Virus record (IMG/VR): IMGVR_UViG_3300026549_000001
Span: 32,001-96,000 of that record
Reading direction: 5' to 3' (one strand)
Source of the DNA: a virus
Taxonomy: Duplodnaviria; Heunggongvirae; Uroviricota; Caudoviricetes
DNA: 64,000 bases
How positions within the stretch are numbered: position 1 is the stretch's first letter; each line of letters begins with the position of its first letter. Shown one piece after another: positions 6,601-42,168 of this stretch. The translations under genes and the position numbers were made by a program. The notes beneath the pieces are model-generated. The model saw nothing but the letters and a program-made list of their open reading frames with translations. It did no database searches and was not told where the DNA came from.

Positions 6601-9600
6601 TATGTTGTGTTTCCATTGTGCAAAACGAATTTGGATAGCCATATCGTTCAATCATTGTCGCTCGTTTTTTAGTCATCGCTTGTTTATTATGACTTTTTTG
6701 TAATGATTCCTCTGTTAATAATGGCGTTGTTTTCCCATACCGAGCGATATTTGTAGCCTCTATTTTATTTCTTGTGTTAGGATGTTTTTGCCCACAAGAG
6801 ACACTACACACTTTTCGATAACCAAGAGCAAGATTGATGAAATTAGTAGGATTACCACATACTTGACAAATATCTTCGTTATCTTTTTTTAAATATAAAT
6901 TATAATAGTTTTGTGTTGTCATACCATGTGCCAATGCAATATGACAACCAAGCCCTCTATAATTTGGACTTGTATGTTCACAAATTAGACATTTTACCAT
7001 TAAATATTTTCCTTTTAGGTTAAGCAAGAGCAAGGTGGGTAGCCGCGGCTCTTCCGAGGCGAGCTATACTCCCAAGTGCCTGTTTTACTGTGTCTACCGA
7101 TTTATAATCATCTGATGTCATACATAAATGGACTATATCTTTATCCTATATACTATTACCATATATAAAATACCTACCACTTCCCTTTAATAGACTTATA
7201 TATAACTATTCTCATTATATCGCTAACCGTTAAGGCGGTACTCTACTCATTTATTCATATAAGTTTTTCTCTTATATTATACTTTCGATAGTCTCTGAAC
7301 CGTTCTCTATTCGAGAGTTGGTTGCTGATTACTAATTATTAAACGACCGTAGGAGTAGATTGCTTTTACTACCTTTTATTTCACCATAGCCGATTTCTTT
7401 TATTTTTTCTGCTTTCGCAACATTCACGACTGTCTGTATTTCAAAACTTCGTTGTAGTTAAAAGAACATTATAGCTTTTCAGCAATTAAATAGGTTAATT
7501 TTTGCACATATTGGTTAAGTTATCAAAATAAACATTAACCTTTATATACCGAGCCTATAACACCATTAAGCTCATTGAGTTCATCACATAACAGTATCAT
7601 GCACTTTGGGGTATATTCCCCTCTTGTTTTCCTAATTGAGTTAGCATCCACATAAGAATTGTAACCCTTGACTTCGGGTAATTGTGGATGCTTCCACTTG
7701 TTCTTCTGTAAACCATTATATATATCTTCAATAGTAAGAATAATGGGTTGTCTACCTTCAGGATATATCATTAGGTTCTTTGCATAATTTCTATCTGTTT
7801 CGTCCAAGTCAACAGTAAGCTCAAACATTTCATCGAATTGACATTTTTTACCGAAAATTTCAAAATAATCTACTTCGACTCCTTTGCACTTATATATATT
7901 ATTGACTTGTTGCTTCTCCATAAATTTGAAGCGGCTCATCATTAGAGTTTGAAAGTTTGCCGCAAGTGCCGCCGCTGTTGCTACATCAAGCGCAACTCCT
8001 TTGACTCCTTTAACCCCCCGCAACAAATTGAATTCCACTCTTTTACAATCCCATTTACTTATTATATTTCTATAATAAACTGACTATATCTTGTATAATA
8101 AATGACTTATTTGTGAATTTTAAACTGCTTATACCAATGTTTATCATGAAATTTACTAATACAATAGTTTAGGTGTGGTTGTACTTCTTCGACTGTCCAC
8201 ATTATAACATTATTATCAGCCATACACTTGCGTTTATCTTTATCCTTTAGTTGTCTATCTTCATCCAAGAATTGAAGTCCTTTTATCTCAATCAGCTCAT
8301 CATTGATTAAGAAATCTGGAAAATAATAATGTTTTTTATTATTACTATCGTAGTATTCAAGTCTAATTGGTAATCTATTGATAGGTATGTTATTATCTTT
8401 ACAATAAATATATACAGCTAATTCCCAAGAGCTATCAAAGTTTAAATTATCATACTTGTAATGGCTTAAAGTTCTCTTTTGAATTTCTCTGTTTTGTTGA
8501 GGATTTTTAACCCCATATCTTTCCATGTTGGTATGTTTAATTTTTTCTTTGCCATACTCTGATGCAAAAACATTTTCAGCCCCAAACTTTTCTACAAGTG
8601 TTTTAATGGCTTTTGCTTTAATCTCTCCCGCTTGTAATGTGCATATATTACCGTATAGTTCTAAATTTGTTTGTTTTGTTTTTTCTATAACATCTATGCG
8701 TTGATGGGCATTCTCTACACCATACCGCTCAATATTTGCTTGTTTAATTTTTTCTTGTATTTCTTTTGATTTAAACGGATTGTTCACCCCATAATTCTCG
8801 ATAAATGTTTGTTTAACTTTATCTTGCGTTTCCCTCGTACAAAATGAAGTTTTATATCCGTGTACTCTTAAGTGTGTGGCTAATCGTTTTTCTTGAATCG
8901 TTTTATCTGCATACTGACATTTTTTACTGCATCGGGAATTATATCCTTGATTAAGACTAATAAACTTGGTAGGGTTTCCGCAACATTTACAGATTCCCTC
9001 TCCTTCCCGCTTTAGATAAGTGTCATAATATGTTACATTTGTTAAGTTATGATGTTTTATATGCCATGATAACTGTTTTGCTGTTTCAAACGATTCACCA
9101 CATATTTTACAAGTTATCATTTATTATACTCCTTCCACTTCCATCCGTAACTCATCCTCGGATGTACTCCCTTAATGGGATAGTCGATACACTTCCTCAA
9201 TTTTTTGAGTTTAGCACGGTATTCGGTTTATCTCACCATTTTTCAGGTTTACCGTCTCTTATTCAGATTATTCGTCTATGGTTTATATCCCTATATCTTG
9301 TTGTAACATTTCATAGAGAAGTCTTATTTTTCTGATACCGTTAGCAATTTAGAATAAAATCTAAATCACACCCATGAGTAATATGGTTCAAAAGGAATGC
9401 GCGAATTGGTTTACGCCCGCTAACTGAAAGTGGTCGGGGAATCTTGATACATGACCTACAATGGACTGTTCAAGAACTGACTTTCCTGAATTGTGTAGAA
9501 TAGCTCCAAAAGGAGATTGAAACTTTGGAGAGGTGTCCAATGTAAAACCATAATATTGTCCAATTTGATTTAATGGTTTTACAGCAAAGTTTACTTGTTT

Positions 9601-9603
9601 CAA
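3691..9603 (-). CDS. FtsK-like ATPase 1, C-terminal gene: 38-aa intein C-fragment plus C-extein. Exons 9603-9413, 8051-7569, 7122-7023, 5740-5528, 4194-3691
   Basis: TTG start with AAGGAGG RBS. Joined exons are in frame and read ...ILHN/SGKSVLEQS...AGV^DCKRVEF...ILLCDELNEL^MTSD...GSIARLGRAAATHLALA^CQRASG...GRGFLQSG...QPED^DWEF, which are FtsK/SpoIIIE motifs. Confidence 0.88.
4195..5527 (-). mobile_element. Group I intron 4 (carries an endonuclease ORF)
   Basis: P1 AGAGGAU/GUCCUCU with U-G at the 5' splice site; CAACGACUAUC and GAUAUAGUC P7 strands; P9 hairpins; terminal G; removal restores the frame. Confidence 0.85.
4277..5281 (-). CDS. Intron-encoded putative homing endonuclease (C2H2/CxxC Zn motifs, KYGVxN repeats, PD-(D/E)XK/Vsr-like C-terminus)
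   Basis: CQLC..H..H, CPVC, YELDIYLP..LAIEYNGTYWH; stop codon overlaps the P7 3' strand; likely start ATG 5281. Confidence 0.8.
   Translation of the reverse strand: MQCQLCNENVNVLGVHIKIHNISPKQYYDLFYKTSQEGICPVCSKETTFLGLTKGYRIFCSNSCSALYNQNRKDVRDKTKHTLQEKYQITCACGRGNSSYRANQTKKALMAKYGVDNPFYLTTIQEQIQNTKTEKRTLFEQENKCTRMKTLVNLYGEGWKQNKQLNIPRIYYCNSAFIPNEYIPIIKEYYNSHIATTDTLPEQEIVKCLMGVYPYEIIRHIRTIISPYELDIYLPHRKLAIEYNGTYWHSKVPKDYHLKKSLLCREKGIRLIHIYGFENFEEQLSLLTYLIMNEDRYPKDDFNKNNLIDIIPTPSIIYNKECVVYGAGNIILSE
5741..7022 (-). mobile_element. Group I intron 3 (endonuclease ORF in the P1 loop)
   Basis: Exon ends UUGCU and pairs with GGCA downstream of the ORF; core GAAUUGCGGGAA, AAGACUAUCG and AAGAUAUAGUC; ends ...CCAG before TGT CAG AGA. 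Confidence 0.85.
6131..7000 (-). CDS. Intron-encoded putative homing endonuclease
   Basis: CLIC..H...H, CQVC, RYG repeats, YPYHCDFYLP..FVEING..TH. Confidence 0.8.
   Translation of the reverse strand: MVKCLICEHTSPNYRGLGCHIALAHGMTTQNYYNLYLKKDNEDICQVCGNPTNFINLALGYRKVCSVSCGQKHPNTRNKIEATNIARYGKTTPLLTEESLQKSHNKQAMTKKRATMIERYGYPNSFCTMETQHKVQQTLLKRYGNNNPMCGNVLEKYNGTRSSWENILKTALLEHNIPFEYEYNKDLRYPYHCDFYLPNTDTFVEINGYFTHNNHWFDETSQADVSVLNAWKEKAKTSNKMQMAIDIWTKKDVEKRKCAKQNKLNYVVLWTLEDIHNWIASNFEIRHDY
7123..7568 (-). mobile_element. Group I intron 2 (no ORF, 446 nt)
   Basis: P1 GAGCU/GGCUC; AAUUGCUGAAA, GAGACUAUCG and AAGAUAUAGUC core; terminal G; the CT^T join gives DELNELMTS. Confidence 0.85.
8052..9412 (-). 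mobile_element. Group I intron 1 (carries an endonuclease ORF)
   Basis: P1 GCGU/GCGC; GUAUCGACUAUC and AAGAUAUAGUC; P9 hairpin with GAAA loop; the GT^G join gives AGVDCKRVEF. Confidence 0.85.
8107..9120 (-). CDS. Intron-encoded putative homing endonuclease
   Basis: CKIC..H..H, CKCC, repeated YGVxN units, FDSSWE..YFPDF..IEIKG nuclease motif. Confidence 0.8.
   Translation of the reverse strand: MITCKICGESFETAKQLSWHIKHHNLTNVTYYDTYLKREGEGICKCCGNPTKFISLNQGYNSRCSKKCQYADKTIQEKRLATHLRVHGYKTSFCTRETQDKVKQTFIENYGVNNPFKSKEIQEKIKQANIERYGVENAHQRIDVIEKTKQTNLELYGNICTLQAGEIKAKAIKTLVEKFGAENVFASEYGKEKIKHTNMERYGVKNPQQNREIQKRTLSHYKYDNLNFDSSWELAVYIYCKDNNIPINRLPIRLEYYDSNNKKHYYFPDFLINDELIEIKGLQFLDEDRQLKDKDKRKCMADNNVIMWTVEEVQPHLNYCISKFHDKHWYKQFKIHK
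9490..9603 (-). other. Split intein 1, C-fragment (38 aa)
   Basis: ..GQYYGFTLD..ILHN followed by Ser(+1) SGKS; VMA-type blocks F/G. Confidence 0.88.
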
Positions 9604-9687
9604 ATAAATTTCCTCCTTAATATATATTTCCCAAGATTGGGTTATATATAGCACTTACAAAATTACTTATTATTTGTATAATAAAAA

Positions 9688-9715
9688 ACAAAGAGAATAT
9701 ATTTATCTCTTTGTT
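9688..9715. terminator. Hairpin, probable terminator after the Hint-core gene
   Basis: acaaagaga...tctctttgt inverted repeat. Confidence 0.45.
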
Positions 9716-9740
9716 AGTAATAATGTAAGGTTATATTTAC

Positions 9741-10232
9741 TTATACTTTTTCCATAGCCATTTTACTTTGGAAGGATTCATCCATTTGTAGAAAAACATC
9801 AACAGGCATATCTATATGTTCACCCGTTTCTTTATCTACCATAGATAATATATGTTCTGCATTTACATAAAAGGTTTCTCCGTCAATAGTCAATTCATAC
9901 ATATCTGATAGTCCTGTATGTAATTTAGTAATTTGACGGGGAGTATTATCTTCTCCAACCACATAATCTCCAAGCTCAATATTTTTTGCTAATTTATATC
10001 GAGCATCAACAGGAAGGGTTGAATTATCTTCTTCTATTCGGAAAGACCTTTTTATTCTTCTACCATTAATATTATCTATAAGATAGTATTTAAAGTAGTC
10101 GGTCATTTCTAATAATTCTGAAATTGAAAAGCAATATTTCTTTGGGAATAGAAAGCCTTTAAATACAAATAATTGTTTATTGTCATTTCCAATAATAAAA
10201 GAGTTATCATCTAAATATACTCTGTATCTCAT
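9741..10232 (-). CDS. Free-standing Hint core, middle piece of split intein 1
   Basis: KLAKNIELGDYVVGEDNTPRQITKLHTGLSDMYEL..FYVNAEHILS is a VMA-type N2/B block; no block A and no terminal HN. Confidence 0.82.
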   Translation of the reverse strand: MRYRVYLDDNSFIIGNDNKQLFVFKGFLFPKKYCFSISELLEMTDYFKYYLIDNINGRRIKRSFRIEEDNSTLPVDARYKLAKNIELGDYVVGEDNTPRQITKLHTGLSDMYELTIDGETFYVNAEHILSMVDKETGEHIDMPVDVFLQMDESFQSKMAMEKV

Positions 10233-10266
10233 TTTTCCTTTCGCTTTGTACTTCCTTCCTTTTTTA

Positions 10267-10683
10267 TTAGGTTAATTCCCAAGCCAAGTCATAATATCTT
10301 TTATATCCACTATAATTAGGAATATCTTGGCTATGTCGCATTATTTTATTACTGTGCTTCTTGTGTGATTTTTTCCTTATATTCAGTCTCGCTACTCTTT
10401 CAGGAGTATCTACCACACTAAAAGTTACAGGTCTTTTTGTAACTGTTGGTGGGTAATATCCTCCCTCAACAATTACTTTACCATAGAGTTCTATTTTGGG
10501 AACATTTCGTTCAGGGAGAAAACAGATTTCATATCCTGTATTATATTTTTTAGTTTTTAAATAATACCCTAATCCCTGTCCGTATTCATAATTGATTGCT
10601 TTTTCAAATCGCCTTTGTTCTTTTAGGCGTGTTTGTCTAATACGGTTATTACGCTTATGTTTTTCAAATAACTTTCTGTTCAT
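10267..10683 (-). CDS. Basic hypothetical protein
   Basis: ORF with RBS, K/R-rich. Confidence 0.6.
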   Translation of the reverse strand: MNRKLFEKHKRNNRIRQTRLKEQRRFEKAINYEYGQGLGYYLKTKKYNTGYEICFLPERNVPKIELYGKVIVEGGYYPPTVTKRPVTFSVVDTPERVARLNIRKKSHKKHSNKIMRHSQDIPNYSGYKRYYDLAWELT

Positions 10684-10713
10684 ATCATAATCGTTCCCTT
10701 TCGTCTATATAAA

Positions 10714-10740
10714 AAGGCTAACTTGTTTAAGGTTAGCCTT
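10714..10740 (-). terminator. Rho-independent terminator
   Basis: aaggctaac...gttagcctt hairpin with a T-run on the minus strand. Confidence 0.6.
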
Positions 10741-10762
10741 ATTGTTATTATATTAGGTTTAA

Positions 10763-11383
10763 TTATGCCGCCTTTGTGTAGCGAATAATCTTGTCTGCCA
10801 ATCTTCTATATACCCGAAGATTGATAAGCAGATTTACAGGCTGTTCAGCAAGTCTCGTAGCACACATAAGTTTTACTTCGTCATTGTAAACTACTCTATC
10901 ATCACAGCCCTCAACCCTCCACAGGTCTTTCTTTATTCTATCAAAACCTATGGAATTTTCAATGTATTCCAACATGGCTTTTTTGCTTACCAAGATAAGT
11001 TCCATCTCTTCTACCTGTTGTGAAGCGTTTGAAATATTTTCACCATCTGGTACGGAGTGTTTGTGGATTACACCAATGAGCAAGTGCGTGGTTTCGAGAG
11101 AAGCGTTTACGCCCCAACCATCATACCTAATGCCGTTTTTATTAAGAACGGAAATCTCCCAATTATTTGTGCGGGGAAGATATTTCAATGATGCTTTGGA
11201 AGAAAGCATCTTAAAATCTACATTCATTCCGTCAATTATGGCATCAATTCCACGGACTTGCCTTTTCTTATCATGAACAAGTTCCACCGAATTGAATTTC
11301 TCTTTGAGAATTCGGGTTACAAGTCCGTTAAGGTGTTGTTCGATCTGGCTATCCTCTTTACGAGTGGTGTTGTAGTTAAGCAT
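10763..11383 (-). CDS. Putative PD-(D/E)XK-fold nuclease
   Basis: Q-x-x-G-I-D..VDFK..WEIS..GW pattern; AAAGGAGG RBS before ATG 11383. Confidence 0.55.
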   Translation of the reverse strand: MLNYNTTRKEDSQIEQHLNGLVTRILKEKFNSVELVHDKKRQVRGIDAIIDGMNVDFKMLSSKASLKYLPRTNNWEISVLNKNGIRYDGWGVNASLETTHLLIGVIHKHSVPDGENISNASQQVEEMELILVSKKAMLEYIENSIGFDRIKKDLWRVEGCDDRVVYNDEVKLMCATRLAEQPVNLLINLRVYRRLADKIIRYTKAA

Positions 11384-11412
11384 TAGCTTGTCCTCCTTTG
11401 TTTGATGTTTAT

Positions 11413-11441
11413 ATTGTATCATATATGGAAGAATTTGTCAA
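11413..11441 (-). promoter_or_regulatory. Sigma-A type promoter
   Basis: TTGACA-17 bp-TACAAT with TG extension. Confidence 0.7.
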
Positions 11442-11621: not shown

Positions 11622-12674
11622 TTACAGTAACCAATCTTTTCTTATTGGTAAATTATCATTAAACCAATTGTCTATATCTTCTTTATTCCATAATACAACA
11701 TAATTTATATTGTTTCGTTCAGCACATAATCTTTTTTGCACATCCTCAACTGTCCATATAGAAATAGCTCTTTGATAGTATGAAGATGATTGTTTAGATT
11801 TCCATTCACCTAATTTATCTAAATCTACTTTGTTATTACTATCAAACCAATGTCCTCCGTGAGAAGGATGATTATTTATTTCAATAAATAAATCTAAATG
11901 TGGTAAATAAAAATCACAAAAATAGGGATAACGACTATCTTTATATTCTTCTATATAAGAAGATATATTATAGGCTTCTAATAATAGAAGAAAATATTTT
12001 TCCATCTTGCTTCTTTTGTCATTCTTGCGTAATGTATTTGTTCTCTTACTCCAACATTCATCAGAATATACTTTTTCTAACTGTAAAGTATTTGACACCC
12101 CATATCTCTCTAAATTGGTAGTCATCATTTTTTGTTTGATTTCATCAGAATACATAGGATGGCTTACACCGTATTTTTGTAATAATGATTGTCTTATTTT
12201 TTCTTTTATACTTTCAGATGCAAATGGGTTTTCTGCATTATACCGAGAAATATTAGTCTGTTTAATTCTTTCTTGAATATCTTTATTTGCAAAAACATTT
12301 GATACTCCATATTTAGATAAATTAGTTTGAATTATCTTTTGTTTTACTATAGGAGATTTCAATACATTAGATACACCATATTTTTCTTTAACCGTAGAAG
12401 TTCTCTTTGCTTTGGTTTCTTCTGAACGCAGTTGTTTTTGTAGATTTCCATTAGTGTCAGAATTTGCACATTTAGAGGAACAATATTTAAGATAGCCCTT
12501 CACATAACCATTAAACTTTGTATCTTTTCCACACAAAGCACATTTTCCTTCATCTGCACTTTTTAGGTAACTATCATAATACTCTTTCAAAGTAATACTA
12601 TGCGATAGGCGTATATGACTACTTATCCCACATATTTGGATTTCTTTTCCACATATTTCACATTGTACTATCAT
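11622..12674 (-). CDS. Free-standing putative homing endonuclease; overlaps the end of the FtsK-1 N-gene
   Basis: Same family as the 6131-7000 ORF (YPYFCDFYLP..FIEIN..H, KYGVSN repeats). Confidence 0.8.
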   Translation of the reverse strand: MIVQCEICGKEIQICGISSHIRLSHSITLKEYYDSYLKSADEGKCALCGKDTKFNGYVKGYLKYCSSKCANSDTNGNLQKQLRSEETKAKRTSTVKEKYGVSNVLKSPIVKQKIIQTNLSKYGVSNVFANKDIQERIKQTNISRYNAENPFASESIKEKIRQSLLQKYGVSHPMYSDEIKQKMMTTNLERYGVSNTLQLEKVYSDECWSKRTNTLRKNDKRSKMEKYFLLLLEAYNISSYIEEYKDSRYPYFCDFYLPHLDLFIEINNHPSHGGHWFDSNNKVDLDKLGEWKSKQSSSYYQRAISIWTVEDVQKRLCAERNNINYVVLWNKEDIDNWFNDNLPIRKDWLL

Positions 12675-13431
12675 AAGGTCTTTCTAATGTATTAAACATT
12701 CTAATAGGAGTTTGTTCAGAAAAACACCCTGTACCCCCCGCTATGAGCATTGATGTGGAGGGAATAGTAGGATATAAAGAGGGGTTTTTATTTTGGTCGT
12801 TAAGATACCAAGCAATAGGAGATACTTGTTGAGTATTAGTGTTAATACATAAACCTACAGGTATAATGTTCCAAAAGAGGTCATCTTCTTGTTTGAATTT
12901 AGCCATTTTAGGAATAGGTTGCCTTTTCTTACATTCTACTTGAATAACACCTCTGTCAATAAATGTTTTTATATAGAAATAAGAAAAGTGTATGGACTTG
13001 TCACTCATTTCAGTAACAAATTCTTTTTTGTCAACTTCTTTTCCTGAACGGTCATATTCTATGTATATATATTTTCTGTCATAAAATATTACATCTGTGC
13101 CTAATCTTTTTTGTGCGATTTCGAACACCCAATCATCGAATGGAGCTTTTCTCAAGAATAATCCCTTAACAATAAAAGCTAATAAAAGCAATCCAAGAGC
13201 TAAAACACCACAATATAAAATAATGTGTCTGAAAATAGGATGTCCTGTAATATTAGCAGTTTGTTTGACAAAAGTAGAAGCAAATAAAAGAGCGGCTATT
13301 ATAAGAGCAATAATAGACAAGGTGCGTAGGGTTTTGAATACCCTATACATAAACTGATTTCTTGGTTGTATACCTTTGAGAACAACCTCTTCCTGTTTGT
13401 CATTTGCTATATTATCTTTAAAGAGTGCCAT
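12658..13431 (-). CDS. FtsK-like ATPase 1, N-terminal gene: 2 TM helices, ends in half of Walker A plus a 22-aa intein N-fragment (12661-12726)
   Basis: ..SMLIAGGTG/CFSEQTPIRMFNTLERPYDSTM*; CFxxxTPIRM is intein block A. Confidence 0.85.
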   Translation of the reverse strand: MALFKDNIANDKQEEVVLKGIQPRNQFMYRVFKTLRTLSIIALIIAALLFASTFVKQTANITGHPIFRHIILYCGVLALGLLLLAFIVKGLFLRKAPFDDWVFEIAQKRLGTDVIFYDRKYIYIEYDRSGKEVDKKEFVTEMSDKSIHFSYFYIKTFIDRGVIQVECKKRQPIPKMAKFKQEDDLFWNIIPVGLCINTNTQQVSPIAWYLNDQNKNPSLYPTIPSTSMLIAGGTGCFSEQTPIRMFNTLERPYDSTM

Positions 13432-15567: not shown

Positions 15568-17745
15568 TTAATCTCTTTTCTTTTGGAATGGATTGCTTGT
15601 TAATAGCTTCACATCGTAATTAGAAATTATATGAATAAATCCAGTTCTGTTCTGACTGTCTATCATAAAACAATTACCTGTGGCTAATTTTGTGGTACTT
15701 GCAATAACACTATCTGTATCAATTGCGGTTGATGCATCTATTTTAGATGTGTCAAATTTATCTAAAAATAGTTTAGCTTCTTCCATAGAACTTCTAAACA
15801 TTACTTTGGTTGACATAAACTGTGCAATGTTATCAGGAAAGTGTGAGATGCCTTGTGAAGCCAATAAAGTAGCTGTATTAAGCGAACGCCCTATAACAAG
15901 GAATTTATCTATAAGGTCAGACATTTTTTTATTACCATACAATAAGTGAGCTTCATCACAAACTAATGTGGTAGGTATTTTATTATCTGATGATAGGAGT
16001 TCATATAATTTAGTTGTAATAATATACAAAATAGCAGAAGTGAATCTTTCATTAGCATCATAATCTTCCACTTTCTTTGTATAGTCAGGCAAACTCATTC
16101 CGTGTAAAGTAATAATTAAAGATGTTCCTCTATTTAAATATAATGGAGTAACATTTTCCTCTCTGGTGAATAATAATTTACCGTACTTATTATCTTCATA
16201 CATTTTTAGCATATTGCCTATTTTTTGACAAGATTCATTATCTCTGCTAAAAAGATAGTCAGCGACATCTTGCATATCTTTATAAACACCATCTCGGTTA
16301 TATGCAATAATAAAGTCTTGAATAATAGGTGTAATTGCTATAATATCCTGTTTATCTAATTTACCACATATTATCTCTATTATAGATAAAAGAGTAGAAC
16401 TATCAAATTTATCTAAAAATGTAAAAGGATTTAATGCTCCTGGGCGAATATTATTTATATCTATAAACTCAACAGAACTACTTACATTTAGTAATTTATT
16501 GAAGTCATTCTTCGGGTCTATACAAATAACCCTTTGCCCCATTCCTAAAGCATTTGCACATACATTTAATAGAAAAAATGTATTATGGGTAACTACTGTA
16601 TCTCCTGCAATAAATTGATGGTCTGGAGCATCTACCATAAAACAGGTACAATCTTCTTCTTTATTTAATGGTTGAATATCTATGATTTGTAAAGTGTTAT
16701 AATTGCGATAATGTTTTTTAACAATAGATGATGCTTCTAATGCTCTTTCTTTCTTTGCACTATATGAGAAAAAATTAGGCTTTCTTTCTGCAAAACAACC
16801 AACAAATATATTGTAACTTGGATTACCTTTTCGTAAGTCAGGATTTCTTTCTGAACAATACATATAACCCATACTACGGACAACCTCTATAATATCATCA
16901 ATAAGTTGTCTTGAACCACTACAATATGAAATATTATATCGTGGTGGAAGACCTATTGTACCATCTGTATCAAATAGCCCCTGTATAAGCTCCCACCTAT
17001 CCTCCTCGGTAGTATATTTATAACAATCGGGAATATACTTATTATAAGAATAACAATTTGTCAATAAATTTTGTATTTCTTCATTTTCTGTTAAATGCTT
17101 TGCGTGTACTCTGTTATTACTATTATCAAAATAAAAGCTATAAGTATATCCTACTTTCTCTTTTTTACAAGTAATTGTAGTATTTAATTGCTTACTTAAT
17201 AGTAATGCAATTTTATTTGGAACTTCTTCATTTCCAGAAGAAACCTGTAAGTCCCCATAACTGCGACAACCATTACCTAAAAATGCTCCAATTATATATG
17301 GTGCTACAGTATACGACTGCTTTGGGAATTGAAGCGCACCATTGTTTTGTAAATAAAAGTTATGTCTATTCGTGCTATCTGTGACACCCTTTTTTATTAT
17401 ATCTTCTACACTCATTATCTCCCACTTATATTTTTTGTGAGAAATTGTACCGACTAAAAACCTATGGTCTTTAGAACAAACTATTTTTCTTCGGTCGGCT
17501 AATGTCACTTGATACATTTCTTTTTTCCCTTGTGGAAAAACACCTAATACTTTGGTTGGTTGCCCATTTTGTCCAAAAATATAATCTTGTTCTTTTATAT
17601 CTGCTATTGTTTTCATCCCCTGCGGGGTTATTATCCGCTCACTATTAGCGATCGGCTTTCCGCTGCCTGGGGAACCTATCACAACTGAACCAGAAGCTCT
17701 ATTAGTCATTTGAGCAGTAACGGGCGACCATCTAACTGTACTCAT
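15568..17745 (-). CDS. VirB4/TcpF-like conjugation ATPase (ATPase domain only) containing an intein
   Basis: GSPGSGK/TFF Walker A, IDPKND, LVCDEAH Walker B, GRS..ASQ. Confidence 0.85.
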   Translation of the reverse strand: MSTVRWSPVTAQMTNRASGSVVIGSPGSGKPIANSERIITPQGMKTIADIKEQDYIFGQNGQPTKVLGVFPQGKKEMYQVTLADRRKIVCSKDHRFLVGTISHKKYKWEIMSVEDIIKKGVTDSTNRHNFYLQNNGALQFPKQSYTVAPYIIGAFLGNGCRSYGDLQVSSGNEEVPNKIALLLSKQLNTTITCKKEKVGYTYSFYFDNSNNRVHAKHLTENEEIQNLLTNCYSYNKYIPDCYKYTTEEDRWELIQGLFDTDGTIGLPPRYNISYCSGSRQLIDDIIEVVRSMGYMYCSERNPDLRKGNPSYNIFVGCFAERKPNFFSYSAKKERALEASSIVKKHYRNYNTLQIIDIQPLNKEEDCTCFMVDAPDHQFIAGDTVVTHNTFFLLNVCANALGMGQRVICIDPKNDFNKLLNVSSSVEFIDINNIRPGALNPFTFLDKFDSSTLLSIIEIICGKLDKQDIIAITPIIQDFIIAYNRDGVYKDMQDVADYLFSRDNESCQKIGNMLKMYEDNKYGKLLFTREENVTPLYLNRGTSLIITLHGMSLPDYTKKVEDYDANERFTSAILYIITTKLYELLSSDNKIPTTLVCDEAHLLYGNKKMSDLIDKFLVIGRSLNTATLLASQGISHFPDNIAQFMSTKVMFRSSMEEAKLFLDKFDTSKIDASTAIDTDSVIASTTKLATGNCFMIDSQNRTGFIHIISNYDVKLLTSNPFQKKRD
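16582..17655 (-). mobile_element. Cis intein (358 aa, class 3-like, LAGLIDADG) in the VirB4-like Walker A
   Basis: Starts with Pro; CSKDH block B; GAFLGNG and GLFDTDG; CTC block F; VTHN/T. Confidence 0.9.
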
Positions 17746-23616: not shown

Positions 23617-24006
23617 TTATATTTCTTCCCATTTTTGGTCTTCTCTCTTGTCTATTTCGGCACTTTCACCATTAAACTCAAAAGTTGTTTTATCATCAGC
23701 AAAAGAGATTTCCTCTGTACCTTCCAATTCATCAAGCAATTCTTCTGTGTTAATTATTTCATCAGAATTATAACCCATAGGTGATAATCCTCTTAATTTA
23801 TAATATTCTTCTATATCTTCAAATTTAGAAAAGAATACTCTTGCAAATAAAGGTGTACCCGCAGACTGAATAACTGCCATACCAGGATATGTATTATCTA
23901 TTGTAGTTGCCAATGTATTATCTAATGCAACTAAACTACTTCCCGCTTCCGTTGCTTTGCCACAAAAACAACGAAATCCACAATTAGAAGTCAAAATTTT
24001 CCCCAC
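23617..24006 (-). CDS. FtsK-like ATPase 2, piece D: 8-aa intein C-tag plus C-terminal extein
   Basis: GTG start with AAGGAGGT RBS; MGKILTSN/CGFRCFCG..SSLVALDNTLA..PG matches the FtsK tail. Confidence 0.78.
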   Translation of the reverse strand: MGKILTSNCGFRCFCGKATEAGSSLVALDNTLATTIDNTYPGMAVIQSAGTPLFARVFFSKFEDIEEYYKLRGLSPMGYNSDEIINTEELLDELEGTEEISFADDKTTFEFNGESAEIDKREDQKWEEI

Positions 24007-24021: not shown

Positions 24022-25134
24022 TTAATATAATTTTCCCGCGCCATAAATTGTATGTTTGTCATCTTTATATATAATCATCGGTTCGGGAATTGTAGGTAAC
24101 AAATTATTCTTGTTAAAATCTCCAATAGGATAGTTGTCTGTTCCTTGTAATAAAGATTTTAATAGAGATAGTTGCTTATTAAAATCTTCAAACTCGTATA
24201 TGTGAATAAGTCTAATGCCTTTTTCTCTGCATAATAGACTTTTATTTAAATGTTTATCTATAATAGGACAATGTTCAATGCTATGCCAATGTGTACCATT
24301 ATATTCTATTGCTAACGACAAAGAAGGTATATATAAATCCAACTCATAAGGGGAAATTACTCTTCGTGTATTAGTAAGAATTTCTCCATTATATAATGTT
24401 TCTAAAAGTTGTAATATTCTATTTTCGGCTTCACTTCTTTGAGATTGGCTACTGTACGCTTGTATATCCTTTAGAAAGTCCTTTGATATATAAGTATTTA
24501 CCCCGTCTTTTATTGTAGGTAAATTAAGAGCAAACCAACCCTGTCCATATTCCGCTATAAGTGTTTTCTTGACAATACAATTATGAGTATGCTCAAAAGA
24601 ATGAATGTTTTTTCAACGGGTAATATTTGCTTTTTCCTTGCGGGATTGTTCTTCTGATGTAGTTTTTATACTATGCCATTTTTTATTTCTATTTGATAAT
24701 GTAGCACGAAACTGTTGTTTTTCATCGTCTGAAAGAGCGTTATAACGAGCATAATACTTTTCCCGCAACAATTCTTTGGTGGCTTGTTTTGATTGTTCGC
24801 TTCGTTGAGATAACCCTTGTGATATTCTTTTTCCAAACTCATTACCATAGGTTTCTCTAATGGTAAAAAGTCGTTTCGTATGTGACTGCTGTAATTGTTC
24901 CTCTGTATAATGTTTATTTTGATATGTGGTAGCACAAGATGTAGAACAAAATTTTCTATACCCTTTGGACAAACTTATAAAAGTAGTTGGTTTTCCACAA
25001 ATTAAACACTTACCATCTTCCACATTTATATAAGTATCATAATATTCTTTTGGAATAACATTATGTGTATGGGATAGATGTCGGCTAAATCCTTCAGTTG
25101 TAGTAAACAGTTTGTTACAAAAATGACAAATCAT
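24022..25134 (-). pseudogene. Homing endonuclease family gene interrupted by an in-frame TGA at 24613-24615
   Basis: ORFs 24613-25134 and 24022-24342 share a frame; reading through gives ITR*KNIHSFE..YGQGW as in the paralogs. Confidence 0.75.
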
Positions 25135-27129: not shown

Positions 27130-27480
27130 TTAATCTTCTCCATAAATTACAAATAAACTATCTTCTGTGTCAGTAGTAATACATCTTACTGGTTCGGGTT
27201 TAATTTCCTGTATAGATAATAATTTACTACCACAAAAATCGACTGTTTGAAAATACTCAAAATCATCAAAGATGTTAAGAGTATCAGTTATATATTTTAG
27301 TTCGTTTATATAATAATGCCATTGGTGATTCCAAGAGCATTTTACCTTCCCATTATCAAATGTTAAAAGAAACATTCTTAAAGGGAGATGGATAGGAGTA
27401 AGGTCTAATACTGTGTGGGGTTTACCATCATAACCAATAACCTTATCTCCTATTTTTACATCTCGTAGCTTTTTCTTCAA
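27130..27480 (-). CDS. Free-standing Hint core, middle piece of split intein 3 (class 3-like)
   Basis: LRDVKIGDKVIGYDGKP; CSWNHQW block B; EPVRCITTD..LF block F; no block A or G. Confidence 0.85.
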   Translation of the reverse strand: MKKKLRDVKIGDKVIGYDGKPHTVLDLTPIHLPLRMFLLTFDNGKVKCSWNHQWHYYINELKYITDTLNIFDDFEYFQTVDFCGSKLLSIQEIKPEPVRCITTDTEDSLFVIYGED

Positions 27481-28569: not shown

Positions 28570-28908
28570 CTATTCTTCTATTTCTACCAAAGTATCAAGG
28601 CTTAAAGGATTTGACCTTAATACTGTGGGTACAATATCTGCTTTTGGTTTCTGTGTAGCTATACTTATATGTATACCCGCACTTCTACCTAACTGTGCTA
28701 TTGATGATAAGATTGATACTATTTCATCTTTTAGCGCATCTTCTTCCTTTGCTTCGGCACTTTTCATACCACTATGCTGTGTCAACTCTGCCAACTCGTC
28801 ACAAATCACCAATAATACTTGTAACTCATCAGAATATATATAATCTACGCAGTTTGCATTAACAGGAATCCAATCCGTACCATTAAGGCAAACTTCCACT
28901 TCTTTCAT
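28570..28908 (-). CDS. FtsK-like ATPase 2, piece C: Walker B region plus a 12-aa intein N-tag (28573-28608)
   Basis: LLVICDELAEL..IAQLGRSAGIHISIATQKP..LRSN/PLSLDTLVEIEE*; likely start ATG 28908. Confidence 0.85.
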   Translation of the reverse strand: MKEVEVCLNGTDWIPVNANCVDYIYSDELQVLLVICDELAELTQHSGMKSAEAKEEDALKDEIVSILSSIAQLGRSAGIHISIATQKPKADIVPTVLRSNPLSLDTLVEIEE

Positions 28909-31250: not shown

Positions 31251-31721
31251 TTATGTACTATGTAAAAGTTCTACAAGTTCACTTGCTTTCATAGATGTTT
31301 CCTCTCCATCTACTCTTACTTTTATAGTATCATTTTCATTATATTCCCTACCTGTAACATAAACCTTGTCAGTTTTTTTACTTGGCAAATAATCTGTTAA
31401 GGATTTTATTCCCATCTTTGCCATTTCCTTATTTCGCTTATACATACATAATCTTGCAATGCGTAATAATTCAACCGCCTCTTTAACACTATTGGCAACA
31501 CCAACTATTCCGTTCATTCCTTTATAATTAGAATATTCAACTTGCTTAATATCAATCAATCCTAATGCAATCTTATCTCGGTGTTCGATACAATGTATTA
31601 TAAGATTCTGGGTTAAAACGGAGTTATGAGATTTAATTCCATTGGTAATATAAGAGCCTGTATTTGTACTGACACAAAAACAAGGTAGTTTGCCAACAGG
31701 TTCACAAGATAATAGTTTCAT
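31251..31721 (-). CDS. FtsK-like ATPase 2, piece B: 33-aa intein C-fragment (31623-31721) plus extein
   Basis: MKLLSCEPVGKLPCFCVST..IKSHN/SVLTQNLI..LIDIKQVEY..MYKR. Confidence 0.87.
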   Translation of the reverse strand: MKLLSCEPVGKLPCFCVSTNTGSYITNGIKSHNSVLTQNLIIHCIEHRDKIALGLIDIKQVEYSNYKGMNGIVGVANSVKEAVELLRIARLCMYKRNKEMAKMGIKSLTDYLPSKKTDKVYVTGREYNENDTIKVRVDGEETSMKASELVELLHST

Positions 31722-31786: not shown

Positions 31787-33013
31787 TCAAATTATAAGGT
31801 TTACCCGAACAGGGTTTAGTACACACCCAATATCCAATGGTTTTTCAACATCTTGGAATACTTTTCTCATTATTTGATAAGCCCCATTTACATCTGCGTT
31901 TATTAATGTACCATCATTACTTCTAAACAATCCTCTGTTTACTCGTCTTTTTGGGTTATAGTATTCTTTTAAAGGGGGTTCATTATCTAAAAAACTTGTA
32001 CCCGAAGTGTAACTTTCTTCGGATAAAATGAAATTAATACCTTCTTCCTGACATTTATATTTTAATTTTTGTATAAATGAATAGTATGGTATTTGAGCAA
32101 AATTCTTTAGGCGTACCCCCTGTTTTTGATATTTATTGTGTCCAACCACAATAGAGGTAATACCCAAAGAAAGACAATGGTTTACAATATATTTAGAAAC
32201 TCGGTGCAAAAAACAATCTATTTTATCTGCCCTTTTATTTTGCAAACCATATAATAGATGACTATACCCAATATCATTTCCATTTCTATCTAATTCAGCT
32301 TTTACTGAATTAATGCGATAATTGAAGTAGTTATTACAAGATTTTAGACCTTTACCATTTATAATAATTGGTTTATTAAACATATTATCAACAAAGGTTA
32401 CAAAGTTATCTAATCCCAAGTCTATACTACCTATTGCCCCGCATTCATTAATTTGTTCTGAAATATCAATAGTATATATTAATTCCACAATGATTCTTTG
32501 GTTATGGGGTACAAATCTACATTGGTTAAAGTTTACAAGTCTACTATCTTTAATAAATTGTGGTTGAAGTGTAAATCCACACAAAGATTTGCTAAAATGA
32601 ATTAGCCCGTCTTGTTTTAGTCTACAATTTGATTTTGTCAATGAGAATTCAGTTACACCATCTTTTTTCAAATATTTAGGCAGTTGTGGTCTGCCTTTAT
32701 ATTTTGATGGATTATTTTTCCAATCCTTTATAGTAACAAAAAATGATTTCCAATTATCTTCCAAACGGCGAAGAATTTGCTGACTGCCGCTTGATAATTC
32801 TAATTCCCAATAGTCAGGGTATTCTAAATTACTCTTAACTAATTTATCAACCTCGCCATATCTCAACCACTTACCATTTTCAAGAAATTCCTTACGAACA
32901 AGATAATTGCCGTGGTTATATATGTTCTTGGCAATGTGACATTTTTTAAATAAAAGATTGTACCACTTGGATTGTCTATCTATTATATGTTTTTCTGTTC
33001 TTTGCACTAACAC
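31787..33013 (-). mobile_element. tnpB: TnpB (IS200/IS605-superfamily RNA-guided nuclease) with no transposase
   Basis: IDLGLDN, EESYTS and NADVNGA RuvC motifs. Confidence 0.88.
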
Positions 33014-33018: not shown

Positions 33019-33855
33019 TTATCTCCCCCCATCAATATACTTCCTTCCAAGACAACCCGCACCGTATATAATGTAACCATTTTCATTATAAATAACTTGT
33101 GGTGTTGGTATATCCTTTATTAAATTATTTTTATTAAAATCATCATCAGGGTAGTTATCTATTCCATTAAGAAGATTAAGCAATAAAGAAAGTTGTTTCT
33201 TAAAATCTTCAAATTCGTATATATGGATTAGCCTTATTCCCTTTTCTCTGCATCGTAAGGATTTCATTAAATGATAATCCTCGGAGGTACTATTTTTTGT
33301 ACTGTGCCAAAATAGTCCATTATATTCAATAGCTAATTTAACATCAGGCAAATATATATCTAACTCATACGGGGATATTATTTGTTTTGTATTTTCAATA
33401 ATAGCACCACTATATTGTTTTCTTATAGCCGCTACTATTTTCTTTTCTGTTTTAGAACTTCTATATAGTGTTTTATAGTTTTGTATTAATGGTAATTGAT
33501 TATTAGGTACAAAAATATATTTTTTATAACGCAGAAAATCAATTCTATCTTTTATAGATAGCCAACCTTGCCCGTATTGACTTATAACTTTTTGATAATG
33601 AGTACAATCATTTATTAATTCAAAACGCGCAATATCTTTCTTAATACTTTCAGATAATTGTTTTGTATTTGTAAAAGTGGAATTATTATAACGATTTTGT
33701 TTTGTAGCCATAGATTGCTCCTTGAATCTATCTGTTTCCACATAACTACAAACACCATAGAGTTCTATCATTGTTTATGTAGCTTTCTCTCTGTTATTAT
33801 ATGATGTAGTACCATATAATCTTATTTCTGTTTCTCTGAATTTTTGAGTTATAAA
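33019..33855 (-). pseudogene. 5'-truncated homing endonuclease family gene (intact ORF 33019-33771)
   Basis: Lacks Zn fingers; in-frame TAA two codons upstream of the ATG with family repeat sequence before it. Confidence 0.65.
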
Positions 33856-37147: not shown

Positions 37148-37483
37148 TTAATCATTAAGATAAATACTTATAATTTTATAGTCACCAAACTCGCCCTCTA
37201 TCCCATAATCATGGTCATAAAAAGGAAGATAATTCCGACTCGCAAAATTGTTTACTCGTTCTTCCGTTACTTCTCTATCTGGGAATATTTGTTTATATTT
37301 TTCTACAATGTCTTCATAAGTTAATATTTGCACTTCTTCAGGAGGGTAAAAGCATTCGTTTGATAACTTTAGACAATTTCTTTCATCTTCTGCCCACTTT
37401 GCATATTGAGATTTAGTCATTACTACAAGAGAGTGGGTTGATGAACTATTAGTTTCAAATGTTCCTATACGCACATTTATCAT
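37148..37483 (-). CDS. FETNSSSTH-motif phage-type protein
   Basis: Paralog of 50898-51185. Confidence 0.65.
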   Translation of the reverse strand: MINVRIGTFETNSSSTHSLVVMTKSQYAKWAEDERNCLKLSNECFYPPEEVQILTYEDIVEKYKQIFPDREVTEERVNNFASRNYLPFYDHDYGIEGEFGDYKIISIYLND

Positions 37484-38045: not shown

Positions 38046-38808
38046 TTATCTTTCCCCAGTCCACTTGGAAACTAATATCTTATGGTTAGGTGAATGCGGA
38101 AAATAATATGTGAAATTTGATGGTGTAAGCTCTCCACCAAAGGTTGACTTGTGTTTAGTTGTACTGTGTCTATAAGGGTTATATCTTACATATTTCTTTC
38201 GACTATTAAGAAGATTATCATAGTCGTAATTGTCTAACTCAATCATTTCTTCCCAAGTTTTAATATTCATAATAATTAGTCGGTTGTACGATAATAGTAA
38301 GACAGTTCTTCACCTTTTAGGGTGGAGGTTGCATAATTGGCTGTACTATTATACAGTTTATTATAAAGCTCTGCATAGGTTTCATTGACTTCATTATGTT
38401 CCCAAATTTTCCAATTAAGAGCCATAACAAGTTCGGTTAAAACTTTATAGTCTGTTTTTGCATAAGCCATTGCGTTTTTATGTGTGTCCTCTATTGCCTT
38501 AATACCAAAAGCATCGGCAATAGAAAAATCCATATAAAAAGTTGTTATGGGCTTATACCCTGTCATAGCTTCTATATTCCAATCTTTATATTTCATTATA
38601 GATAACCCCCATCTACTAAATCTTTAATATCTATTTCTCCTAAATAAGTATCAAATTCATTTACTATTCTCAAATGAACTATATCCCCGTTTTGTAAGAT
38701 TTCATATAGTCCAAATTTTTTCAAAAAATCTGCATATATTTGCGGATTCTCCTCAATCCAACACATAAGCCTGTCAATATCTATATCTTTAGGTATATTG
38801 TGCATCAT
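38046..38808 (-). CDS. Three small hypothetical proteins
   Basis: ORF track (38046-38270, 38276-38596, 38596-38808). Confidence 0.55.
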
Positions 38809-38821
38809 ATATATCCCTCAT

Positions 38822-39349
38822 TTATATACTTAATTCTCCAAAAGTATTTAGCAAGAAAGCCACTCCTTCTAATGGAACCCAGTAATGAACATCATCAATT
38901 TTTTGGCTTTCTTCTTCTATGGTAAATCTTTTAACAAAGACTTCCCTGTATGTTCCATCCTTAAATGTTATTTGATAACATTCAAAATGGTCTTGACTAA
39001 TATCTATAACTTCCTGAAAAGCAGAATCATCAATACCACCAATTACATAAGAATAAACTAATTTTTTTTGTAAATCATCTACATATCCTAATATTTCACA
39101 AGATATATTTTCTCTCAAAGGAATTTTCCCCTGTGAACAATAATGCTCCACATAATCTTTTGCTTCTTGGGGAAACGCAGAAATATCTACCTCTATAAGA
39201 TGGTCTTTTGAAGCTATCAATGATTTTTCTATTCCATCATTATCTATATAAACTAACTTATAGCAATCGTATAGATGTGTTTGATGGCGTTGTGTAACCT
39301 CTGAACCATCTTTAAATTTATGCTTTCTTTTAACATCTTTCCATTTCAT
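38822..39349 (-). CDS. Free-standing Hint core, middle piece of split intein 2
   Basis: MKWKDVK..DGSEVTQRH..CYKL..KSLIASKDHLI is N2 plus block B (H); no block A or G; likely start ATG 39349. Confidence 0.68.
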   Translation of the reverse strand: MKWKDVKRKHKFKDGSEVTQRHQTHLYDCYKLVYIDNDGIEKSLIASKDHLIEVDISAFPQEAKDYVEHYCSQGKIPLRENISCEILGYVDDLQKKLVYSYVIGGIDDSAFQEVIDISQDHFECYQITFKDGTYREVFVKRFTIEEESQKIDDVHYWVPLEGVAFLLNTFGELSI

Positions 39350-39450
39350 AAAAAAACATTCCTTCAATTGTGTATATTTCAAATCTCCTTGCATATAATA
39401 ATACCAACAGCGAGAAAAACGCTTAATAATTATAAAGGAGATTTTATAGT

Positions 39451-39657
39451 ATGAAAATCAATGGTATTCACACGGAGCAGGGACAAATCCTCTATTATAG
39501 GCTTGACAATGGGAGAATTGTTACACCCAATGAGTGCATAGACCTTATACGAGAGGGTTCTATTGAAAATGGCACATTGAGCAAGAGTAAGAAAGGATTG
39601 GTGTTCATTAAGAATAAGCACCGTAACTCTAAACTTACTGATTTTGAAGCCTTTTAA
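39451..39657 (+). CDS. DUF3892-like small protein; only convincing plus-strand gene
   Basis: AAAGGAG RBS; YRLDNG..T..E.IDLI..G.I; followed by a hairpin. Confidence 0.6.
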   Translation: MKINGIHTEQGQILYYRLDNGRIVTPNECIDLIREGSIENGTLSKSKKGLVFIKNKHRNSKLTDFEAF

Positions 39658-39660
39658 GTA

Positions 39661-39684
39661 TAAGGGGGAAAACGCTCCCCCTTA
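39661..39684. terminator. Terminator between convergent genes
   Basis: taagggg...cccctta hairpin. Confidence 0.65.
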
Positions 39685-39697
39685 TTTTTATATGTAA

Positions 39698-40849
39698 TTA
39701 TTGTTGTTCTCCACGCACAAACACTTTCCATTCAGTTGCAAACGGAGTTACACAAGTTGCGTGAAATATAACATCGTTAAACTGTTTGCGTAATTTATAA
39801 TATATCGGGTTTGGGGAATCGGTTTGTCCATATAAACCTGTTTCGTATTCTGTATCGGATAAAGCAACAAACCCATGCTTTTTAAGAATATCCTCTGATA
39901 AAAACACATTTAATCTCTCACACGGAGCTTCTAACAAATATGCTATATATACATCGGCATCCTTAACCGCACAGTCCGAGCAATATATTTCACCCTCTGT
40001 CGGCTCGAAGTAATTTCTTCTCCAGTCAGCCATATACATTGGGGTAATACGCCTACACCCATCGCAAATATAAGCCTCGTCTGAATAATAAAAAGCATCA
40101 GCTATATAATATATAAAGGCACATTGACTTTTTAATTTGGTATCATAATCTTCTTGTGTGATATAAGAATTAGCTAATAATATTTCTCCTATTTTTGAAT
40201 TAACTTGTTCCATATCTTCTACAGATTGAAATAACATTGCCATTTGTCCATAGCTGTCTTTCCTATATTCATAATAACAATTTGTGGCTTCTTGTAATTC
40301 TTTTAATACAGTAGCTACCATTTATTACCTCTTTTAAGAAATAGATGCAGTTATAGTGTCTGCCCAACTTACTACGGAGTCAAAGTCAGATTCTTCAAGG
40401 TCATCGTATTCGTCTACTGTTAATCCGATAACATAGGTAATAGAACCCGTAGGAACATCATGAGAAGATTCACACAACTTTATACATTTGTTAGTATTGG
40501 ATATTACGGAAAAACTAACCTCATAGCCTCTCTCAAAGGCTTTTCCAATTGTGTCCACTATTTTATATCCACTTGCACCGTTCCATCTGCAACCGTGAGC
40601 CATAACAAGATAATGGGGAAATTTATCTATGAGTGTTTCTACATAATATTCAAACTCATCTTTCATAAATTCGCTACTATCCCAATGAACATATTTATCG
40701 GGTATGTCAAACTTATAAATAGTGGCAAGGTCAACAGACATACCATCTTCTACATCATCATACCCAATATCAGCAAACATCTTTTTTACATTTTCATCAT
40801 CCCCGTTTTCTACATATACATAAGTAAACATATCAAACAAGTTATCCAT
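39698..40849 (-). CDS. Two hypothetical proteins (39698-40321 and 40334-40849)
   Basis: ORF track. Confidence 0.55.
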
Positions 40850-40866
40850 AACAATTCTTCTCCTAA

Positions 40867-42168
40867 TTATTCAATAATTTGTTCTATATAAATGGCTTTA
40901 CCTCCACCCGTATTACGAGTATAGAGGGCTTTATATGGATATATATTTCCACCACTCCATAATGGCTCTTGTGTGTCGGTAATTAAAAATAAATGATTTT
41001 CGGAATTAACCTTGATACATCTTACTGGCTCAATAGACACTTCATCTTTTGCTATTAATCCATAACTCTCTAATATATTGTTGGTGCTTCCAAGAACTCT
41101 GTCTGTGTATAATTTCAATTCTTCTGCGGAAGTTTCAGCATACCCTACATTTAGTTTGCGTTTATTTTTAAAGGTTTCAGCAGATTTTAATTCTTTGGGG
41201 AATTTATGTATTTTATCAGAAATTACATTTATTGTATTCAGACCTGATGCAAAGGTAAGACTATAAACTTTATCGGGAATTAGTATATCATGTACTTCCA
41301 CAACCTTGACTGGTTTATTGTTTATATCAAATACCATATCGCCCACTTCAATAGTAGCCATTGTTTTATATCCTTTTGTAGTAGGAATAACAGTATTTAA
41401 TCCTAATGGCGCACCACTAATAAGACTTTGTGGCTGTCGAGGTAAAGTAGTATCTTCAGGAATATAATTACCTTTTTCATCTTTATATTGACTATGGTAT
41501 CTTCTACTTTTAGGAACAGCATCAATTACCCAAGACACTTCACCTTTACCAGAAATACCCAATGGCATCTCTCTAAAGTGTTTTAACCAACTACCCGCCC
41601 AACGAGCCATATTCGGGGGTTTATCGTTTCCTACAAAGGTCATATATCTTTCTTCAAGATGTAACTCATATCCCCAAGTGAAATTTGGTAAGAAAGAATT
41701 AAGCTGTTGAAGAATAATAGATAATACTTTTTCATCAAATGAAGTAGGTTCAACTTCTACATCTATTTTATTGATATTACCATACTTATAGCCTAACTTG
41801 AAAGGTACTTTATTATAATCTAACCCCTCACCTTTCTTGTCAACCATTTTTTGTAGGATTTCATATACTTGTTGAATCTCTTTTCTTTGTTCTTCAACTT
41901 TAGATTTTTTGATAGTCATAAAGACCATCATAATAATAAGGGAAATAACAGCGTAGCCTAATACAATACCCCAATAAGCACTTTTTAGAGGACTTATTTT
42001 AGGAACTAATATTTGAGCAATTATCCCCACAAGAAAAAGAACAGCTAAAATAATACTATCTCTTTTTGAAAAAGAATAGCTTTCTTCCACTTCGTCAGAA
42101 ATGCCTAATATTTTATTAGCGGCAAATTGTGATATTGCTACTATTATAAAATATATTAGTATAAACAC
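40867..42168 (-). CDS. FtsK-like ATPase 2, piece A: TM N-terminus, cis mini-intein, TGGGK, then a 9-aa intein N-tag (40870-40896)
   Basis: QSLISGA/[intein]/TGGGK/AIYIEQIIE*. Confidence 0.85.
   Translation of the reverse strand: MFILIYFIIVAISQFAANKILGISDEVEESYSFSKRDSIILAVLFLVGIIAQILVPKISPLKSAYWGIVLGYAVISLIIMMVFMTIKKSKVEEQRKEIQQVYEILQKMVDKKGEGLDYNKVPFKLGYKYGNINKIDVEVEPTSFDEKVLSIILQQLNSFLPNFTWGYELHLEERYMTFVGNDKPPNMARWAGSWLKHFREMPLGISGKGEVSWVIDAVPKSRRYHSQYKDEKGNYIPEDTTLPRQPQSLISGAPLGLNTVIPTTKGYKTMATIEVGDMVFDINNKPVKVVEVHDILIPDKVYSLTFASGLNTINVISDKIHKFPKELKSAETFKNKRKLNVGYAETSAEELKLYTDRVLGSTNNILESYGLIAKDEVSIEPVRCIKVNSENHLFLITDTQEPLWSGGNIYPYKALYTRNTGGGKAIYIEQIIE
40912..41409 (-). mobile_element. Cis mini-intein (166 aa, class 3-like)
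   Basis: PLGLNTVIPT..TIEVGDMVFD; SDKIHKF; EPVRCIKV; YTRN/T. Confidence 0.85.

Follow-up and report, generated by a model that had tools for sequence, protein, structure and literature searches.

Can a natural intein be spread over three genes, one that ends in its first few residues, one that begins with its last, and a third that encodes nothing but its middle? The question is raised by a 64,000-nucleotide stretch of DNA (hereafter the window), positions 32,001-96,000 of the complete 250,568-bp IMG/VR record IMGVR_UViG_3300026549_000001, which has terminal repeats. In the window two FtsK-like ATPases, FtsK1 and FtsK2, are divided into pieces bordered by intein parts. Consistent with a preliminary description made from the sequence, we found three natural three-piece inteins with free-standing middle genes: in each, blocks A, B, F and G are distributed over three genes, and their in-frame removal restores the host protein. 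Splicing itself is predicted, and we consider it very probable that the three chains of each intein are joined by protein trans-splicing, the arrangement having arisen through repeated fracturing of one intein by endonuclease genes.

Nine pieces of three inteins

All nine pieces translate on the minus strand; the N-terminal tags (IntN) end at stops, and the C-terminal pieces (IntC) end in Asn before Ser, Ser and Cys in sets 1, 2 and 3, respectively. The cores and C-terminal pieces have their own starts (ATG, TTG or GTG) with Shine-Dalgarno-like motifs, perfect (TAAGGAGG) at IntC1 and IntC3 and weaker at the cores. Set 1 lies in FtsK1:

12727-13431, minus strand: FtsK1 N-extein, 235 residues, with a membrane anchor; its C-terminal end is the first half of Walker A, GGTG.
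12661-12726, minus strand: tag IntN1, 22 residues, Cys1 first, class 1 block A, then a stop.
9741-10232, minus strand: core 1, a free-standing closed open reading frame (ORF) of 163 residues, of which 76-163 are the remaining N-intein with the block B His.
9490-9603, minus strand: IntC1, 38 residues, blocks F and G, His-Asn; TTG start with TAAGGAGG.
3691-9489, minus strand: FtsK1 C-extein, Ser+1, SGKS, in five exons (9413-9489, 7569-8051, 7023-7122, 5528-5740 and 3691-4194).

When the 327 minus-strand ORFs of the 250-kb genome were scored for block A, IntN1 came first (20.2 vs 11.2 for the runner-up). In a comparison of 4,759 stop-to-stop frames with profiles built on 115 contiguous inteins, the top places went to core 1 and IntC1 (E 1e-21 and 7e-4). 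A position matrix for block G failed to rank the C-tags; the profile ranked IntC1. Set 1 is of class 1 by its residues (Cys1, block B His, His-Asn and Ser+1), with Asn in place of the block B Thr; Cys1 on the tag would be activated by the block B His of the core, with His-Asn and Ser+1 supplied by the C-terminal piece. The middle was expected to be a Hint segment and nothing else; it is indeed a free-standing gene, but core 1 carries in addition a 75-residue domain (residues 1-75, window 10008-10232), a degenerate extra half-Hint without the catalytic His, for which the best structural hits were inteins without exception (Z 7.8 and 6.8, root-mean-square deviation (rmsd) 1.7-2.7; the C-terminal half of the core 1 model is of low confidence). 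This domain is perhaps a stabiliser.

The C-extein of FtsK1 is itself interrupted by four group I introns with P7/S motifs, whose removal yields an open frame. Three of the four hold endonuclease-like ORFs, and Rfam missed all four.

Set 2 interrupts Walker A of FtsK2:

41410-42168, minus strand: FtsK2 piece a, the N-extein, with a membrane anchor, reaching the first residues of Walker A.
40912-41409, minus strand: contiguous cis mini-intein of 166 residues, Pro1, C-terminal Arg-Asn, Thr+1.
40897-40911, minus strand: micro-extein of five residues, TGGGK of Walker A.
40870-40896, minus strand: tag IntN2, 9 residues, Ala1 first, then a stop.
38822-39349, minus strand: core 2, a free-standing closed ORF of 175 residues with the block B His, terminating before block F.
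31623-31721, minus strand: IntC2, 33 residues, block F Cys, His-Asn.
31251-31622, minus strand: FtsK2 piece b, Ser+1, a Pfam FtsK match, terminating at a stop with no intein tag.

This Walker A is thus interrupted twice, by the cis intein and, five residues on, by split intein 2. Block F sits in the C-terminal piece and not in the core, and core 2 is assigned to Hint solely by homology to a fused allele. Set 2 is an Ala1 intein of atypical kind, which has the block F Cys of the class 3 Trp-Cys-Thr triplet but neither its Trp nor its Thr; by analogy with the AceL NrdHF intein, which has an altered triplet (PMC7891396), it may work in the class 3 manner.

Set 3 lies further along FtsK2:

28609-28908, minus strand: FtsK2 piece c, own ATG, Walker B, a Pfam FtsK match; the N-extein of intein 3.
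28573-28608, minus strand: tag IntN3, 12 residues, Pro1 first, then a stop.
27130-27480, minus strand: core 3, a free-standing closed ORF of 116 residues with His52 and Trp54 (block B) and Cys100 (block F).
23983-24006, minus strand: tag IntC3, 8 residues, block G Thr, Ser-Asn; GTG start with TAAGGAGG.
23617-23982, minus strand: FtsK2 piece d, Cys+1.

Here the class 3 residues (PMC2807308) are divided between chains: Pro1 opens the N-tag, Trp54 and Cys100 are on the core and Thr is on the C-tag. The predicted fold of core 3 (predicted local distance difference test 93.7) best matched class 3 DnaB inteins (6bs8, TM 0.76, rmsd 2.1, E 1e-5). Because Trp and Cys are on the core and Thr on the tag, the N-extein would be expected to pass to the free core as a thioester on Cys100 before moving to Cys+1 of the C-extein, with Asn cyclisation to follow. 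A three-chain complex prediction for set 3 scored 0.32 (control 0.15) and was not used.

FtsK2 contains a fourth break (31251 / 28908), inside an inserted domain, at which there is no intein. The same break is found in relatives without intein 2 or 3 (L065, P0322) and is absent from L024 and L046; since it is common to relatives, the final form of FtsK2 should be two chains.

By Pfam, cores 1 and 3 contain Hint, and two of the extein pieces contain FtsK. When the joined exteins of the window were compared with L046, in which both ATPases are intact and intein-free, they were 52-61% identical with no gap at any junction, and all frames are restored without stops once the interruptions are removed. 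The earlier proposal that intein removal rebuilds the FtsK motifs holds in this respect, but GATGGGK is recovered only if the 166-residue cis intein is taken out as well; L065 keeps that cis intein yet lacks intein 2. P0326 and P0334 have sites that are free of intein and at which Cys+1 is already there. The cores and most tags scored far higher against their own fused allele in relatives than against other alleles, and the window pieces aligned with it almost end to end; IntN1 and the 8-residue IntC3 are too short or divergent to be discriminated in this comparison, and IntN2 had no fused allele.

We therefore envision each triplet as a single intein made as three separately translated chains, in which the N- and C-tags would give terminal beta-strands and the free core most of the Hint fold. 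Once assembled, the chains would join the exteins through the usual chemistry of inteins, probably in a single round per core, and splicing is expected to be stoichiometric and single-turnover. The products would be a full FtsK1 with a repaired Walker A and two FtsK2 chains, a+b and c+d, associating without an intein. The N-tags are acidic, whereas the C-tags are basic, as are the core N-termini of sets 2 and 3; judging from these sequences, opposite charges may drive capture of the tags by the cores.

Alleles, selection and the origin of the breaks

A search of relatives for contiguous or two-piece alleles, which the preliminary description had called for, recovered both two-piece forms and no contiguous one. 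In L024 and L025 the N-tag and core are fused in sets 1 and 3, and core and C-piece are fused in set 2; P0118 and P0092 are of the fused N+core type, core 1 is fused to IntC1 in P0109 and P0116, and core 3 is fused to its C-tag in P0090. Three genomes (G001-G003) have three inteins in three pieces each, and in a fourth (G005) we saw short N-tags for sets 1 and 3 together with a free core for every set. Core+C alleles have the extra half-Hint of core 1 and N+core alleles do not, and the domain therefore arrived with the short-tag break. The second break of intein 2 follows block F in G001-G003 and G005 and precedes it in the window, from which it would appear that this break arose at least two times. 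The order of the pieces, collinear in the window as first described, differs in G001-G003, where set 3 runs core, C, N; in L024 the IntC1 gene lies before the N gene. The spans of sets 1-3 reach 28, 87 and 59 kb.

A profile search with core 3 returned 96 short proteins, about 85 of which (distinct 90%-identity clusters) are full stand-alone cores, from just past block A to just past block F. Across 87 sequences His52 and Cys100 are invariant and Trp54 is retained in at least 90%; among set 3 C-tags, block G Thr is present in 55 of 59 and His in 54 of 59, and the N-terminal start is variable and lysine-rich. Clustered at 50% identity, stand-alone core 1 genes fall into at least 14 groups; they were found with profiles, whereas a single core 1 sequence as query recovered no relatives. 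IntN1 is 15-16 residues long in relatives, with such short tags at about 14 distinct loci. In a core 3 tree with few columns and long branches, the window core was on a long branch near fused alleles (97/94).

In the closest genome pair, the ratio of nonsynonymous to synonymous substitution (dN/dS) was 0.09 for the extein, compared with 0.09, 0.06 and 0.04 for the cores. These values bear on the idea that selfish elements have shattered the ATPase genes and left them dead, for which the great burden of introns, inteins and endonuclease genes and the small stop-containing inserts in the FtsK2 exteins of some relatives might speak. We give it next to no chance: dN/dS is about 0.1 or lower, the window frames all restore free of stops, and RNA of the FtsK1 C-extein is transcribed and spliced. 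The inserts in question are about 6-21 nt long and begin with a TAG stop, one with a short GAAA-capped hairpin (G002 195538 and 231246, G003 84883 and 61983, and G001 52781; loci L016, L018, L013, L012 and L006). They could be minimal introns or stop-hopping sites.

Alternatively, one could read the same constraint as the mark of a regulatory system, in which the cores would be licensing factors that act in trans, domesticated and under separate regulation, and possibly reusable ligases that activate conjugation ATPases post-translationally. The cores lie far from the tags among unrelated genes and are strongly selected, the tags are tiny, the nucleophile of set 3 is on the core, and core 1 has its conserved extra half-Hint, all of which would fit; simple dependence explains the selection equally well, however, an intein acts only once (PMC2807308), the used tags, which complete beta-sheets, should remain bound, and promoter and terminator scans did not rise above chance. 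We regard this view as rather unlikely. A more specific form of it, also quite unlikely, would make core 3 a putative reusable free ligase for a 12-residue C-terminal and an 8-residue N-terminal tag, its own Cys serving as acyl carrier, with tag release and turnover, such that its expression gates assembly of the motor.

Endonuclease-like genes are found between the pieces:

11622-12674, minus strand: DUF7487-type gene that overlaps the stop of IntN1, a putative homing endonuclease (Pfam PF24308, E 1e-23); its endonuclease role is inferred.
33019-33771, minus strand: endonuclease-like ORF upstream of IntC2, by motif likeness judged by eye, with no Pfam match.
31787-33013: TnpB/Cas12f-like gene that follows the preceding ORF, directly upstream of IntC2.
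24022-25134, minus strand: endonuclease-like frames, likewise judged by eye, in two ORFs (24613-25134 and 24022-24342) directly upstream of IntC3; one was tested by Pfam, with no match.

An endonuclease-like gene lies exactly at the single break in L067 and L068 and follows the fused N+core 3 in P0092, and in P0090 a DUF7487 gene separates the core 3 fusion from the short N-tag. Either endonuclease genes would have fractured one intein two times, or an N+core allele would have recombined with a core+C allele, and the pieces would later have drifted apart. On the simplest account, selfish endonuclease genes made the breaks one after another, and these were tolerated since the pieces still reassemble. 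In G002 (179451 and 178369) the IntN3 tag is duplicated around an endonuclease-like gene, resembling a target-site duplication. A second copy of the TnpB/Cas12f-like gene is present at genome positions 142555-143799.

Predicted joining of the chains

The pieces could instead be joined as RNA, by nested or trans-splicing group I or II introns, with a contiguous intein then translated; the same genes are rich in group I introns, and group II introns occur in FtsK2 of relatives. A strict group I P7/S motif, however, was found only inside the FtsK1 C-extein and at none of the gaps between intein pieces, and no group II domain V was found in this genome with patterns that detect introns in relatives. 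Every piece has its own ribosome-binding site and start in all five genomes examined, the N-terminal extensions of tags and cores are variable, and gene order is scrambled. The RNA data point the same way: the joint 8051/9413, which removes the first group I intron of the FtsK1 C-extein and restores the frame, was found in two RNA runs and was absent from DNA runs, but there was no RNA joint at the set 1 breaks or the gap between core 3 and IntC3, across both of which RNA contigs were continuous. We treat this evidence as supporting rather than decisive, because a joint that contigs do not show may still exist and DNA may be present in the libraries. Rfam gave no matches and missed the real group I introns too, and is hence uninformative. 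With genes out of order and tens of kilobases apart, their own ribosome-binding sites and purifying selection, joining at the protein level, as originally proposed, is supported, and joining at the RNA level is highly improbable.

Separately, group II domain V motifs were observed in FtsK2 and VirB4 genes of relatives (G002 179400-180100 and 169560, G003 105800, L029 11370); the G002 FtsK2 case apparently has no reverse transcriptase ORF.

Several observations weigh against three-chain protein trans-splicing. Ligation is a prediction, and the RNA evidence comes from contigs of one sample that cover neither set 2 nor the gap between IntN3 and core 3. Intein 2 is without two of the three class 3 signature residues, the penultimate residue of IntC3 in the window is Ser where relatives usually have His, and among relatives none of the three sites yielded a contiguous allele. 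FtsK2 already tolerates one intein-less break, and therefore some function without ligation is conceivable. One could thus suppose that the pieces assemble without ligating, through non-covalent complementation or cleavage only, the intein parts being docking modules or decaying. Conservation of the intein-less FtsK2 break in relatives, the Ser in IntC3 and the existence of intein-less fractured enzymes such as Aeh1 NrdA (PMC2677866) are in keeping with this. Sets 1 and 2 cut Walker A, however, and ATP binding would hardly be possible with tags retained; moreover, the residues conserved among relatives 40-65% identical are the catalytic ones (Cys1, His, Cys F4, Asn and the +1 nucleophile). Assembly without ligation accordingly has a slim chance in our estimation.

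The element, its precedents and implications

The sequencing runs that contain the window are bovine gut metagenomes, and GTDB genomes gave short spurious matches only. The element has a G+C content of about 31-33%, and its minus strand carries nearly all genes. Two further ATPase-type genes in the window are interrupted by inteins:

15568-17745: VirB4-like ATPase with a contiguous cis LAGLIDADG intein inside; VirB4 is without an intein in G001 and L024.
57869-60607: VirD4-like protein with a contiguous cis LAGLIDADG intein inside.

A terminase identity for 57869-60607, suggested by PHROG matches, was rejected because the matches fall on the intein region. Five Pfam models for capsid, terminase, portal and sheath gave no matches in this record and its relatives (five to six related records), a search that divergent virion genes could escape. 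On the strength of this and of the VirB4-like, VirD4-like and NlpC/P60 hydrolase genes (the last elsewhere in the record, outside the window), the element looks like a giant conjugative-type rather than a phage-like one, a phage being the less likely reading. TcpA/FtsK-like coupling ATPases are known from Gram-positive conjugative elements. The ATPases described here resemble them in having a membrane anchor and an FtsK domain near such genes; unlike them, they are two paralogues, from two and four extein genes, and their transfer role is putative. Between IntN1 and core 1 there is also an ORF of higher G+C content (10763-11422), with no Pfam match and a likeness by eye to restriction-type nucleases, preceded by a near-consensus sigma-70 promoter (11413-11441) and followed by a long hairpin (10714-10740); promoter and terminator scans were at chance level only.

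Engineered three-piece inteins (Ssp and Rma DnaB, Npu DnaE and gp41-1) splice, and the 2023 preprint that describes them states that natural inteins of more than two fragments had not been shown (10.1101/2023.01.30.526203). In line with the earlier statement that such inteins were known only as constructs, we did not find a natural one in the literature, within limited coverage of subscription journals. As in those constructs, N-terminal, middle and C-terminal pieces are on separate cistrons and splicing would need assembly of three chains; here, by contrast, the inteins are natural, three in one genome, conserved in many relatives and with pieces up to tens of kilobases apart. Natural two-piece split inteins likewise have separately translated fragments, but just two of them, both with an extein attached, whereas here a third, extein-free gene is added for each intein. 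In the fractured genes with a free-standing endonuclease described by Dassa et al. (2009, PMC2677866), an intein-bearing gene of a mobile-element host is also split into separate genes with an endonuclease gene at the break. Those have one break and two genes that remain in their original order at the parent locus, whereas here there are two breaks per intein, at non-canonical sites near both ends, with an extein-free middle gene and three genes in all, whose order is kept in the window and whose order and proximity are lost in G001-G003.

Among class 3 inteins, which include MP-Be DnaB (PMC2807308), M. smegmatis DnaBi1 and the naturally split two-piece AceL NrdHF (PMC7891396), set 3 finds its likeness in Pro1, the Trp-Cys-Thr triplet, the best structural match of core 3 and insertion in an ATPase, and its Cys+1 recalls the B. 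vietnamiensis IcmO intein (named in PMC2807308); in set 3, however, the triplet is divided over two genes and the branch-point Cys is on an extein-free chain. The tag lengths fit the break sites of the engineered S1 and S11 atypical split inteins, in which N-tags of 11-12 residues and C-tags of 6 residues splice, each used singly (PMC3620165); this is true of set 3, and of set 2 in relatives, but here both short-tag breaks are in one natural intein. The natural three-piece layout appears to be new; engineered three-piece inteins, two-piece class 3 inteins and singly fractured genes were already known.

Whether natural inteins exist in more than two pieces had been open; here there are three, of two mechanistic classes, and the intermediate alleles illustrate how one fracture of a gene can be followed by another. 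For peptide ligation, labelling and three-input logic, protein engineers have sought to make paired tags of 8-12 residues that work with a catalytic chain of their own; here such pairs have evolved, and some 85 natural variants of core 3 are at hand as candidates for such tools. For the elements that carry them, extein-free intein genes, usually called debris or hypothetical, become candidate essential trans-acting factors.

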